A DNA stretch of 11,260 nt from a virus, in the UHGV virus genome UHGV-1833968; one strand, 5' to 3'. The translations under genes and the position numbers were made by a program. This document shows, one piece after another, positions 1 through 9,039 of the stretch. The notes under the pieces were generated by a model. It saw only the letters and a program-made list of their open reading frames with translations. It had not been told where the DNA came from and did no database searches. How positions within the stretch are numbered: position 1 is the stretch's first letter; each line of letters begins with the position of its first letter.

Positions 1-232
1 ATATTTCTCCTGTTGTACAAGCTTCCATAAGTTGGCAGATTATACACTGAAGATTACCTATAAATAGCTGTGCGGGATAGCAGATCAGTGCAAGAAGTAC
101 AACCAAGTGAACTGTGCGTATTCAGATACCTGGCCTAACGTTCGCGATAGCCGTCCCCTGCACGAAGCCATATATTAGATGTATTAGCTCAGACCTTATC
201 TGACAGGTTGAGTAGGTAGAATCTAATCAAAG

Positions 233-366
233 CTGACAGTCTGGTTTGGACTGTGAGTTCAACCGATGGATGCAACACACAGCGATCTACGGACATTACT
301 AGCATAGCTGTGTATTAATCATCGGGAAGCAGGTCAGTCCGCTCCTAGCACAGAGCAGACTGTCAG
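233..366. repeat. 11-bp perfect inverted repeat pair ctgacagtctg (233-243) / cagactgtcag (356-366), 112 bp apart, with a third copy of the CTGACAG heptamer at 200-206
   Basis: Exact reverse-complement match verified by hand. The second arm lies inside the loop of the 346-387 hairpin, so the two are nested. A further 6-bp hairpin acagtc-tggtttg-gactgt sits at 236-254. Confidence 0.55.
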
Positions 367-387
367 ATTAGGCTTTACTCTGTGCTA
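346..387. repeat. Perfect 10-bp inverted repeat (stem tagcacagag / ctctgtgcta) with 22-nt spacer, 35 nt beyond the G stop codon
   Basis: 346-355 tagcacagag and 378-387 ctctgtgcta are exact reverse complements. No flanking U/T run on either strand, so not a canonical intrinsic terminator. Confidence 0.6.
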
Positions 388-421
388 TAGATACGTTAGC
401 TCACTCCAGAGATCATACAAC

Positions 422-952: not shown

Positions 953-3688
953 TTACACCTGTGCGACGTTATACCATGTGCCATTGATGTATTTTTGTAT
1001 TGGTCTGAATACTGCGGGGTCATCACCATCGACTTCACCGACAATACCAAGCCCGGTAATTACGTGCCCTGCTTTCTCATACATCACCCCTTTCTGCATG
1101 GTCTGGACAACACGTGTGCCAAGTCTGACATCTCTCACATAGCGGGAATCAAAGTTACCGTAATCCGAGGGATTAACACGCCCCGTAATATTTATGGTTT
1201 TATTACTTTGAACGCTTCCGGAGACAAAGCGCATAACATGGACGCTATTAGCATAAACATCCAGATTACCATCACCATTTTGTTTAAAGCCCGTGTCATT
1301 ATCACCCAAAACAATCGAATTACCGCCAAGAGCACTGGATGTTCCTATACCCAGAGCACCATTCAATTGACCACCAGATAACGGCAGTGCACCGACATCT
1401 CCCGCTGTAGGTTTTCGCGTTGTGGTATAAAACTCAGACCAGTCAGCCTCGAATCCGTAACCGTCACGAGCAGAACGATAAAAAATACCACCGTTCTTAT
1501 AATTAACGCGAAACTGGGCGGCGGGACAACTTCCTTCCCCGATATTAAAATGAAGAATTAACGTTGATGCCCCACCAATAGTTGCGTTATAGGCTCCGCT
1601 ACTCCAGTTCCATCCAACGGCTTTATCATTCGCAACGGTGTCTCCTGTTTTTCCTGAAGCAAATGCACCAATATTTTTCGGCGTCAGGTTAATATCTGAT
1701 GTTCCATCAAACGAAACGTTATTAATTTTACGGGCTGTTTTCAGCTTTGTTGCTGTCGCCGCATTGCCGGACAGTTCACCAGAAAGGCCAGCACTGAATG
1801 TCTGTTTCGCGCCCCATGTCTGGGCTTCGTCAATGATTGGTACTCGTCTTGTTGTGATCGTGCGGCTTCCCGGATTTCCTGAAATGCGCACCATAAAAAA
1901 GCGGTAGTTGGCTTTACTTACAGTGCTGCGCCATACATGCATTGAGCGCCCCGAACCAGAATCATCACTCGGACCGACTGAGATGTTTATCAGGTTGCCA
2001 TCAATGACGCCCCAGTCCATACCGTCGGGAATGTTGGTCATATTATCAAGCCGAACGGTTATCAGACTGCCCGGCACAAAATCGTAGGTCTGCCAGTCCA
2101 GACTGGATAGTTTTGCCACTGCGCCACCGATGCCCAGATTCAGAGGCAACGAAAAGGAGTTATATACTTCTCGCCATTCGGTCCATTTGCTCCCGGCATA
2201 GACGCGCTCAAAAGTGCGCCCCTGTGTGGTTTCTGATTTCCCTGTGGTTGTGTAACGCTGCCAGACAGATACACCATCAAAACGCCTGATTACTTCCAGT
2301 ATTCCAAGCAGTGTCGCTCCAGCGGTATCCTGCATTGGACCGTTTGACGCCTTCCCTGTAACGCTGTAAATGCCTGGCGAAGTCAGATCATTCAAATCAC
2401 CTTCGTAATAACGACATTCTGACTGATGGCCTACTCTTGACCACGGCTCCCACTGTGGGTTCTGTGCATTCCATATAGCAGAAAGGCAGCGAACATATAC
2501 GTTCCCACGGCGGGTCGTATAGCGTTGCGTGCGTGAGTACCCACCACCCTCAAGAACTTCAAGGAATCCCTGACCATAAATTCCTTCTTCCGGATAGTTG
2601 CGGTCAAATGAAGCGATAGAGCCACTACTGTTTCGCCATAAACCAAGATGCTCTGCGCCTCCTAGCGTGTTCAGGTCAATAGTTGTGCTCAGGGGGCGTG
2701 TTGCAGACTGAATCTGACGCCAGTAGATCCACGGACCGTCTGAGCCATTCCAGGTGCCAGAAAGATTACGCATATAAACATTGCCAGTTCTGGTGGTATA
2801 ACGCTGCATTCCGGAAAAATTACCGCCATTGAATACCTCAAGAACACCGACTGCACCGTCTTCAGGGAAATTTTTCTCCAGTGTTGCGTTGGAGGATGTG
2901 GATTTAGACCAGACACCCACATAAGCCTTAACTGGACCAAATGTATTGAGATCAGCATCAACCGGCATTTCGCCGTTGTTTTTCATAAACGTCAGGCTGG
3001 TAACACCAATATTGTCCAGAAAAGCTGATTTATCCTGGATATCTGCACCGTTCTGATTTTTCGCCAGACGTGAATTTGCGTTGTCATTTGCTGCCTTGAC
3101 CGCTTTTGGCGTTGCCGCCAGCTCTTCACTGGTGCTGTTTGTTGCACTGCTTAACTGAGTAAAACCTTTTTCTGTCAGCGTGGCGTCAGGATGGCGGCGG
3201 GACTGCTCATGCTCTGCGATTTTGTCATCGACGTAATCCTGCGTCGCCATCACTGTGCTGGCATCAATACTCAGCTCAACGGACGCCACGTTGCTGAGAA
3301 TAATAACCATGCGGCAGGTCTGCGCACGTCCGGAGCCTTCAGCCAGTTCTGGCTTATAGCTTTCAGCCATGTTGGATACCGCAATCAGTGTTCCGGCATC
3401 GTCATACAGACCAAGCTCACGCATCCAGAAGCCGCCCACTTCGGGCGGTACAACCAGTTCAGCCACAATATAGTTTTTATTCTTATTATCCACACTGACT
3501 TTATTCAGAGCGTGACGCCAGACCTCATGCACCAGTTTCGTCTGACCGGCATCCGGCACCGGTAATTTGCCATTACCGTCACCCACGGCCATTGCAGACA
3601 GGTTTACTTTTTTCCCGCCGGGGACAGTGGCGGCTGCCAGCTTTGCGGCTCCGGCAGTAGTGATAACGGTTTTAAATTTCGTGCTCAT
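953..3688 (-). CDS. H: Tail fibre protein (P2 gpH-like, mosaic, 911 aa)
   Basis: Uninterrupted 911-aa ORF. The N-terminal ~200 aa (MSTKFKTVITTAGAAKLAAA...EVWRHALNK...FWMRELGLYDDAGTLIAV) matches the conserved baseplate-attachment domain of P2 H from recall. The centre holds three tandem ~80-aa repeats. The C-terminal region (GGNSIVLGDNDTGFKQNGDG...GNFDSRYVRDVRLGTRVVQ...KYINGTWYNVAQV) is fibre-tip-like. Position between I and G fits. Confidence 0.9.
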   Translation of the reverse strand: MSTKFKTVITTAGAAKLAAATVPGGKKVNLSAMAVGDGNGKLPVPDAGQTKLVHEVWRHALNKVSVDNKNKNYIVAELVVPPEVGGFWMRELGLYDDAGTLIAVSNMAESYKPELAEGSGRAQTCRMVIILSNVASVELSIDASTVMATQDYVDDKIAEHEQSRRHPDATLTEKGFTQLSSATNSTSEELAATPKAVKAANDNANSRLAKNQNGADIQDKSAFLDNIGVTSLTFMKNNGEMPVDADLNTFGPVKAYVGVWSKSTSSNATLEKNFPEDGAVGVLEVFNGGNFSGMQRYTTRTGNVYMRNLSGTWNGSDGPWIYWRQIQSATRPLSTTIDLNTLGGAEHLGLWRNSSGSIASFDRNYPEEGIYGQGFLEVLEGGGYSRTQRYTTRRGNVYVRCLSAIWNAQNPQWEPWSRVGHQSECRYYEGDLNDLTSPGIYSVTGKASNGPMQDTAGATLLGILEVIRRFDGVSVWQRYTTTGKSETTQGRTFERVYAGSKWTEWREVYNSFSLPLNLGIGGAVAKLSSLDWQTYDFVPGSLITVRLDNMTNIPDGMDWGVIDGNLINISVGPSDDSGSGRSMHVWRSTVSKANYRFFMVRISGNPGSRTITTRRVPIIDEAQTWGAKQTFSAGLSGELSGNAATATKLKTARKINNVSFDGTSDINLTPKNIGAFASGKTGDTVANDKAVGWNWSSGAYNATIGGASTLILHFNIGEGSCPAAQFRVNYKNGGIFYRSARDGYGFEADWSEFYTTTRKPTAGDVGALPLSGGQLNGALGIGTSSALGGNSIVLGDNDTGFKQNGDGNLDVYANSVHVMRFVSGSVQSNKTINITGRVNPSDYGNFDSRYVRDVRLGTRVVQTMQKGVMYEKAGHVITGLGIVGEVDGDDPAVFRPIQKYINGTWYNVAQV
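2159..2938 (-). repeat. Three tandem, diverged ~80-aa repeat modules inside the tail fibre (aa ~251-335, 342-425, 438-510)
   Basis: Protein-level alignment of the translated ORF. Shared motifs: G-x-LEV-x-x-G, QRYTT(R/T)xGNVY(M/V)R, S-x-x-W, (E/I)-(P/Y)-W. Example cores: GVLEVFNGGNFSGMQRYTTRTGNVYMRNLSGTWN / GFLEVLEGGGYSRTQRYTTRRGNVYVRCLSAIWN / GILEVIRRFDGVSVWQRYTTTGKSETTQGRTFERVYAGSKW. Nucleotide coordinates are derived from aa positions and are approximate. Confidence 0.75.
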
Positions 3689-6114: not shown

Positions 6115-6125
6115 AACGGGAAGGA

Positions 6126-6149
6126 TGCCGCCGGGTCATACCGGCGGCA
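6126..6149 (-). promoter_or_regulatory. Perfect 9-bp GC-rich inverted repeat with 6-nt loop in the S-V intergenic region (candidate operon-boundary element)
   Basis: Plus strand tgccgccgg-gtcata-ccggcggca at 6126-6134 / 6141-6149. It lies between the S stop (6181) and the V start (6114), 11 nt upstream of the V ATG on the transcribed strand. No U-run follows, so it is not a canonical intrinsic terminator. Function inferred only from position. Confidence 0.3.
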
Positions 6150-6180
6150 ATGTGACGATGAGGTGTCGGGAATGGCACAA

Positions 6181-8835: not shown

Positions 8836-9039
8836 TTACTCCCACAGATTGACAGTTTCAGCCACGGGCGCGGTCTGAACGTCGGGCAGTTCGACGGCGG
8901 TGCCGTGTGGCAGCACCGCACCCAGTTCAGCCAGTCCCGGATTTGCGGCGAGCACGGCCTCGACCACGCCCTCAGTGCGCCCGTAATACCGGACACAAAT
9001 GGCGTCGAGCGTGTCGCCCTGTAGCGCAAAGGTCTTCAT
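8836..9039 (-). CDS. X: Tail protein X (P2 gpX-like, LysM-like fold)
   Basis: The track ORF 8836..9108 has an internal Met giving the 67-aa product MKTFALQGDTLDAICVRYYGRTEGVVEAVLAANPGLAELG..., the size of P2 X. Its ATG overlaps the L stop (ATGA at 9037-9041). The 23-aa upstream extension is rejected. Confidence 0.82.
   Translation of the reverse strand: MKTFALQGDTLDAICVRYYGRTEGVVEAVLAANPGLAELGAVLPHGTAVELPDVQTAPVAETVNLWE

Follow-up and report, generated by a model that had tools for sequence, protein, structure and literature searches.

A simple core site of a tyrosine recombinase has an 8-8-8 layout, and heterospecific lox sites are used for cassette exchange. In the Cre/lox and FLP/FRT versions of this engineering method, inverted elements enclose an asymmetric centre of about 8 bp, and each cassette is provided with two centre variants. 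In nature, gene modules between short inverted Xer-type sites are found on Acinetobacter plasmids; these pdif modules are discrete, occur on various replicons and form arrays. Integron cassettes, each with one attC, likewise lie in arrays with imperfectly palindromic composite sites and a tyrosine recombinase gene at the array end. In phage P2, the interval between the tail genes G and FI is called the Z/fun hotspot in two papers, reportedly among them that of Nilsson, Karlsson and Haggard-Ljungquist (2004; Mol Biol Evol 21:1). P2 itself has two copies of an inverted repeat around fun(Z), and the left copy is labelled 'left inverted repeat' of the Z region in the GenBank records AJ512676-AJ512683, which stem from the 2004 study. 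While phage hotspots for defence and accessory genes are well catalogued, how their contents are exchanged is largely open, and a passage in Rousset et al. (2022) describes the exploration of what drives hotspot variability as only beginning.

We have analysed a window of 11,260 nt from the virus genome UHGV-1833968, a P2-type prophage of E. coli, whose left edge had been predicted to enter the Z/fun locus downstream of G. The general picture that emerged is that Z/fun cargo is probably, with a likelihood of roughly 0.6, a discrete site-specific cassette of the lox- or pdif-like kind, equipped with an L and an R site, and that the likeliest enzyme is a small tyrosine recombinase, which we call Rec. 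Such cassettes share with pdif modules their discreteness, their paired short inverted sites of tyrosine recombinase type, their occurrence on various replicons and their arrays. However, the 8-8-8 sites are not dif-like (dif consists of XerC and XerD arms and a 6-nt centre), they reside in enterobacterial phages and prophages, and there is a dedicated small recombinase gene by the site. In contrast to integron cassettes, each module is flanked by one site of either kind, a candidate promoter of their own seems to be present in at least some cassettes, and Rec reaches only 18.3 and 18.2 bits with integron-integrase models that have cut-offs of 435 and 265, respectively. The architecture agrees with that of heterospecific Cre/lox and FLP/FRT exchange, with the difference that the latter is a laboratory method and is not known as a natural system. 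P2 Z/fun has the same position between G and FI and the same left and right inverted repeats as the locus studied here, but the records AJ512676-AJ512683 lack the cargo described below. The present analysis adds the division of the repeat into a core of 24 bp and backbone-specific arms, the tandem junctions and the link to Rec, although part of this may already be contained in Nilsson et al. 2004. Since the hotspot and its repeats were known before, the finding that the edge of the window enters the hotspot is correct but by itself ordinary; interest is added by the uncharacterised cargo, by a short and widely shared core site and by a small recombinase family that is tied to this site. A literature search with the site sequences yielded nothing relevant, and cassettes of such kind are not described in the literature searched.

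All substantial ORFs of the window lie on the minus strand in P2 late gene order, with the late genes V-W-J-I-H-G ending in G before a gap. H, the tail fibre gene, is the ORF at 953-3688 according to PHROGs. The tail fibre assembly gene G occupies 422-949 on the minus strand, encodes 175 amino acids, matches phrog_136 over its full length (E = 1.2e-78), is annotated by RefSeq in matching genomes and closes the late operon V-G. Its stop codon at 422-424 is where the original prediction had placed the end of the gene. The statements that the 421 bp beyond G contain no ORF of 60 or more amino acids on either strand, and that all plus frames are stopped within the first 67 nt, proved equally accurate: the longest ORF wholly inside 1-421 has 38 amino acids, and the first stops of the three plus frames are located at 28-30, 65-67 and 48-50, so that no plus-strand gene enters across the left edge. 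In 1-421, no frame on either strand stays free of stops for more than 41 codons, compared to a median of 66 in 2000 shuffled sequences, only 1.1% of which had a run as short; the ORF shortage in this segment thus exceeds chance. Other gene gaps checked in the window measure between -13 and 107 nt. One of the short gaps, the 66 nt at 6115-6180, corresponds in strain S88 (locus L001 18115-19419) to a stretch that has a 'GTP pyrophosphokinase' gene between V and S; this RelA/SpoT-like gene has 1,080 bp and is located on the strand opposite to the late genes. From this sequence comparison, the V-S gap looks like a second small insertion point of the late region.

What lies to the left of position 1 was read from Escherichia coli ATCC 11775 and S88. 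Positions 1-1500 are 99.9% identical to about 36 E. coli chromosomes, and positions 1-421 are 100% identical to ATCC 11775, S88 and about 36 others. The H protein has 911 amino acids in the window, just as in S88, but 909 in ATCC 11775; the matching genomes thus serve as stand-ins, from which the window's own left flank is deduced. In ATCC 11775 and S88, the start of FI, the sheath gene, is 2,265 bp to the left of position 1, and three genes are present in the G-FI interval besides the 421-bp gap. Reading leftward, the order is G, the gap, a gene for a DUF5677 protein and rec on the minus strand, a gene for a hypothetical protein of 125 amino acids on the opposite strand, and FI. An empty hotspot with FI close by and no intervening ORFs, which the original prediction had named as its refutation, is at odds with this distance and these three ORFs: the hotspot holds cargo. 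In the genomes that are identical over 1-421, the other side is bounded by FI and its late promoter which, together with the late gene order, the GenBank-annotated repeat and the occupied interval, supports the view that the left edge lies inside the P2 Z/fun locus. The content of this locus varies among relatives, as detailed below. None of the three cargo proteins matched a PADLOC 2.0 model at E <= 0.01, which makes it fair to speak, as the original prediction did, of possibly novel cargo just outside the window. The cargo of this Z/fun locus is uncharacterised.

The DUF5677 gene encodes 280 amino acids on the minus strand, and its ATG consists of the three bases directly left of position 1. 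The match to DUF5677 (PF18928) has an E-value of 8e-10 and 39.5 bits, with a gathering cut-off of 27.1. The protein falls into phrog_4167 and the 125-aa protein, for which no Pfam match was found, into phrog_4155, both families of unknown function, while Rec is assigned to integrase families in PHROGs. Relatives of the DUF5677 protein are few, with 54 cluster representatives at E <= 1e-3, and a scan of the genome contigs with DUF5677 gave only two close relatives. In the literature searched, DUF5677 is mentioned without characterisation; of nine candidates that were cloned to screen for defence, one was a Bacillota DUF5677 protein, and it is not among the five reported as protective. For the function of the protein encoded here, a HEPN-like nuclease, with the HEPN fold and an Rx4-6H motif, may serve as a lead. 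Between ATCC and E2348, the DUF5677 gene (locus L003 10158-11000) differs by 6.1% at codon positions 1 and 2 and by 11.4% at position 3. For a conserved protein this is a high ratio, and selection on it may be relaxed or diversifying.

BLAST divides the 421-bp gap into two parts. Positions 337-421 are widespread: of 5,426 E. coli genomes, about 1,200 contain them, as do 70 phage records. They are 87-92% identical to the annotated 'left inverted repeat'; positions 1-336 are restricted to 56 E. coli genomes at a coverage of at least 80%. The original prediction had held that only the boundary of the hotspot is visible in the window. The boundary is indeed present, but 1-336 already belongs to the cargo cassette, and the window therefore holds more than a boundary. 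An nhmmer model of the repeat covers 336-428 on the plus strand and finds two further copies in the prophage, at 262-173 on the minus strand and next to FI (locus L003 8953-8861, minus strand).

Starting from G, the first element is the outer arm of the left inverted repeat, which extends over 361-421 and on to 428, overlaps the G stop and starts with TGTCAGATTAGG. This arm is specific for the P2 backbone, and lambdoid loci have another sequence after an identical 24-bp site. This site, at 337-360, is an L-type core with the sequence GTCCGCTC-CTAGCACA-GAGCAGAC, that is, two inverted 8-mers and an 8-nt centre, and it marks the G-proximal end of the cassette. An inverted repeat at 346-387, TAGCACAGAG-N22-CTCTGTGCTA, connects the L-site centre with the outer arm; it was predicted by folding and is seen in the Rfam alignment display. 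In the L-type rows, it exhibits G-C to A-T changes and one change from GAG/CTC to GAC/GTC, and lambdoid L flanks retain CCCTGTGCC, which matches it.

The core site is followed by a 74-nt spacer at 263-336 with an imperfect palindrome, whose arms (about 263-283 and 305-327) are paired in the fold. The spacer and the two repeat copies beside it together form an imperfect palindrome of ~256 bp with an arm identity of 67.5% over 120 nt, and the spacer recurs where the cassette is present in E2348/69 and Buttiauxella. The inner repeat copy, at 173-262 on the minus strand, is a relic of an R-type junction from another P2-like lineage: a degenerate site, TTGAACTCACAGTCCAAACCAGAC, runs from 262 to 239 and a P2-type R outer arm from 238 to 173. 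It scores 64 with nhmmer, has its closest relatives among R-type variants of other P2-like loci and is 71% identical to the FI-side repeat, with which it forms a direct repeat.

The remaining 172 nt at the left edge (1-172, minus strand) are the 5' region of the DUF5677 gene. They contain a perfect -10 motif, TATAAT, at 44 to 39 with a weak -35, and a ribosome-binding site, AGGAG, at 11 to 7, 6 nt before the left edge; the ATG follows directly in every matching genome. A scan with position weight matrices revealed no strong sigma-70 promoter; the TATAAT was the best minus-strand candidate upstream of DUF5677, and its promoter activity is something we infer from the motif. An intrinsic terminator on the minus strand was not found after G before position 8860 of locus L003, including the gap between G and DUF5677, so that, judging from the sequence, late transcripts may read through into DUF5677. 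In strain 98208, a copy of ISEc12 (IS21 family) has inserted in the leader of the DUF5677 gene at about window position 188-194 (locus L006 4193/6775); the two BLAST pieces, 1-194 and 188-421, overlap by 7 nt, which fits a target duplication.

A long segment that is poor in ORFs and precedes a gene could be a structured RNA, i.e., a long 5' leader, a small RNA or an antitoxin controlling DUF5677. Positions 1-336 move with DUF5677 in four contexts (the P2 prophage, a lambdoid prophage of E2348/69, a Buttiauxella MAG and the bacterium BS0013), and the minus strand folds with z = -2.26 (plus strand, z = -1.0). We nevertheless regard an RNA as very improbable. The fold stability is explained by the palindrome at the DNA level, a scan of 1-600 against Rfam at E <= 10 gave only noise (best hit 16 bits compared to a gathering score of 89), and one change in the hairpin, A to C, is uncompensated. 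The leader diverges by about 10% between ATCC and E2348 and by 3.6% between ATCC and Buttiauxella, close to the 12.8% and 4.4% at fourfold-degenerate sites; there is thus no sign of purifying selection, and the conservation reflects recent ancestry. More distant DUF5677 homologues (41-54% identity), which are located in lambdoid prophages or other contexts, have short and unrelated upstream regions without a leader, an adjacent called recombinase or a detectable repeat element, so that the leader is not a feature of the family. We give hardly any credence to the idea that 1-421 is a Fim-like invertible promoter switch that is flipped by the short recombinase. It is true that Rec resembles FimB and FimE in size and that inverted repeats lie 74 nt apart, but the inner repeat copy has a degenerate site, Rec reaches only 22.9 bits with an invertase model that has a cut-off of 222, and among the matches listed 1-336 is collinear in all 56 E. 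coli genomes at a coverage of at least 80%, with no inverted variant.

The preferred reading, a cassette bounded by L and R sites, rests first of all on the sites themselves. We aligned 91 unique copies of the repeat from P2-like viral contigs. Across these copies there is next to no conservation on the side of the cargo, followed by a steep rise at AAY-GTCCGCT. The L-type consensus, GTCCGCTC CTGGCACA GAGCGGAC, was derived from 83 unique copies with 77 different cargo-side flanks, and the R-type consensus, GTCCGCTC CTCGCTCA AAGCAGAC, from 74 unique copies with 70 different cargo-side flanks. Half-sites and centres are mostly conserved at 70-99%, with lower values at the first position of the centre and at that of the outer half-site. 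The two types differ in their centres, CTGGCACA in L and CTCGCTCA in R. Outward of the core, P2 loci continue with TGTCAGATTAGG at L and TGTCAGATTTGA at R, whereas in lambdoid loci L is followed by AACCACGCTAG...CCCTGTGCC on the ren/P side and R by TAGAAGGTTAGC on the nin side. L- and R-type sites bound cargo sharply in P2 loci, in lambdoid prophages and in tandem arrays. In the arrays, an L unit, 16-18 nt with a consensus of about AAnCTgACTGAnnTGAAG and an inverted R unit form a tandem junction; such junctions are present in Buttiauxella, BS0013, the loci L147, L151, L160, L162, L097 and L131, the Z region of P2-EC48 and ATCC 25922.

A simpler view would be that the repeats belong to the conserved P2 backbone, for instance as a terminator or insulator located past G and ahead of the FI promoter, and that cargo is swapped by ordinary homologous recombination within these flanks, with neither a dedicated site nor a dedicated enzyme. 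In all P2 Z loci examined, the repeats occur at both sides, conservation of the P2 outer arms is that of a backbone, and an intrinsic terminator lies between the R copy and the FI promoter region. Furthermore, no exact pattern match to an empty P2 site was obtained in viral contigs, and the smallest occupied P2 locus in about 1,100 E. coli genomes measures 630 bp. Plain backbone homology, however, leaves the lambdoid and tandem contexts unexplained: the cargo of lambdoid prophages and chromosomal arrays, the outer flanks of which are unrelated to P2, is enclosed by the same 24-bp sites with unchanged L and R centres, and the tandem junctions have a conserved 16-18-nt spacer. In addition, the loop or centre sequence itself is conserved, which a plain hairpin would not require. 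We therefore consider this explanation rather unlikely.

The cassettes, for their part, behave as discrete modules with inverted bounding sites, as two of them recur with site-precise ends in different flanks. Homology of the DUF5677 cassette stops at the L unit in all three flanks, beyond which ATCC 11775 has the P2 arm, E2348/69 a lambdoid arm, and Buttiauxella the tandem spacer and the next cassette. Including DUF5677, Rec and the 125-aa ORF, this cassette measures 2.38 kb, and its far end is an R-type site by the FI promoter region; the Buttiauxella copy is 96.8% identical to the P2 copy over 1,852 nt. The other recurring cassette measures 1,873 nt; its copy in L076, which adjoins a P2 arm, and its copy in L160, which adjoins the tandem spacer, agree with 97% identity. 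Across all contexts, 60 cassettes delimited by L and R sites were found to have lengths of 662-5,316 nt.

Two further loci were seen in the course of this comparison. In E2348/69 (locus L004 124-2119), a gene pair for an AAA ATPase and an HNH endonuclease is located after the rec pseudogene, and distant homologues (28-33%) follow rec in the viral contig L151 (5768-6956); this may be another cargo pair of the cassette system. In E. coli VG35A2 (locus L007 3997-5652), a cassette of a hypothetical gene and a ComF-family/PRTase-like gene lies between two inverted copies of the repeat. The P2-like element that harbours it has an ogr-like gene on one side of the cassette and the remnant of a tail gene on the other, and such sites thus mark a different slot, too.

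Rec has 194 amino acids and matches Phage_integrase (PF00589) with an E-value of 1e-17 and 65 bits (cut-off 27.1). The motifs LRGCD, KTG, HSMRRT, LGH and RYL, which would supply R, K, HxxR, H and Y, were read by eye and not from an alignment. The protein consists only of the catalytic domain of Xer-type enzymes, preceded by about 35 residues; it stays far below the cut-offs of the Xer, integron and invertase models, and a comparison with the sequences in PDB gave no match. DNA resembling rec is present in 942 of 5,426 complete E. coli genomes (about 17%). Rec homologues with 85-94% identity are encoded on many viral contigs without DUF5677, and in locus L152 rec adjoins the gene for a TIR/SEFIR protein.

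The argument for Rec as the enzyme comes from its position. In at least 10 different upstream contexts, homology begins at an R-type unit (...TCGCTCATAAGGGAC), the distance of which to the start codon of rec is exactly 39 nt, and the stretch from the R unit to the ATG reads AACCATACTCAAATCTCC-N8-GGAGATTTGAGT. On the DUF5677 side of rec, the R site is degenerate (GTTGACTT...), and the DUF5677 cassette may therefore no longer be separable from rec. The ribosome-binding site and start codon of rec are contained in a conserved 15-bp inverted repeat, CATACTCAAATCTCC-N8-GGAGATTTGAGTATG (locus L003 10049-10087), in which the Buttiauxella copy has a double change from C-G to T-A. Judging from this arrangement, the repeat could occlude translation or serve as a protein-binding site.

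One may ask whether the modules are site-specific but moved by another enzyme, either the host XerCD or a factor provided in trans, with Rec as a cargo gene or a decayed integrase. Rec is short, with its about 35 residues before the catalytic domain, is encoded by a pseudogene in E2348/69 and is absent from most P2 Z loci, for which it would have to act in trans. On the other hand, the L and R sites agree with E. coli dif in only 9 and 8 of 24 positions, no better than shuffled sequences, and rec abuts an R-type site at the fixed distance of 39 nt in its at least 10 contexts. Such a fixed spacing is typical of a recombinase that is encoded by its own site, as with intI and attI or xerS and difSL. 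An enzyme other than Rec thus appears unlikely to us, and we retain Rec as the candidate.

Two rec loci deserve separate mention. In ATCC 25922 (locus L172 4489-8780), rec is part of an apparent chromosomal array, in which L sites, R sites and a tandem junction are present; the array adjoins siderophore uptake genes, no phage genes are annotated nearby, and the first L site is still preceded by a P2-type arm, TAATCTGACA. The viral contig L169 (4001-4145) has a variant of the P2 locus in which only the first 35 codons of rec are left, fused to the FI-side outer arm. The junction with the repeat falls near model position 33, and the deletion therefore ends close to the core site.

Taken together, the sites, the cassettes and the location of rec lead us to the following model of exchange through L and R sites. 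A cargo module would be bounded by two core sites of 8-8-8 nt that differ in their centres. If two replicons recombined L with L and R with R, a clean exchange of their cassettes would result. Recombination between like sites within an array would free circles with one L unit, one spacer and one R unit, and these could insert at other places. The Rec family would be the likeliest catalyst of L and R recombination; the reaction and its crossover point are what we infer from the site anatomy. Such a model accounts for the sharp ends, for the sites shared by unrelated backbones, for the tandem junctions and for the fixed position of rec. No recombination product, empty P2 site or free circle junction was seen, and one observation is not predicted by simple exchange of L with L and R with R: in locus L076, an R-type site is located beside the P2 L-type outer arm. 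As a more far-reaching and distinctly tentative extension, which we would not favour over its negation, a single exchange system may dock at the Z/fun slot, at the lambdoid slot that follows the replication genes and at some chromosomal islands; its modules, each bounded by two heterospecific 24-bp sites, would be moved by the Rec family of about 190 residues.

Should the proposal fail, the hotspot is still occupied and its cargo still uncharacterised. If the L and R sites and Rec work as proposed, the ends of cargo would be predictable to the nucleotide, and uncharacterised cassettes, the DUF5677 cassette being one example, could be harvested systematically from P2-like phages, lambdoid prophages and chromosomal arrays. 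Exchange would be directly testable in culture-collection strains, e.g., ATCC 11775 and ATCC 25922. If true, the system would represent a natural counterpart of recombinase-mediated cassette exchange and would provide a mechanism for the reshuffling of phage 'defence hotspots'.
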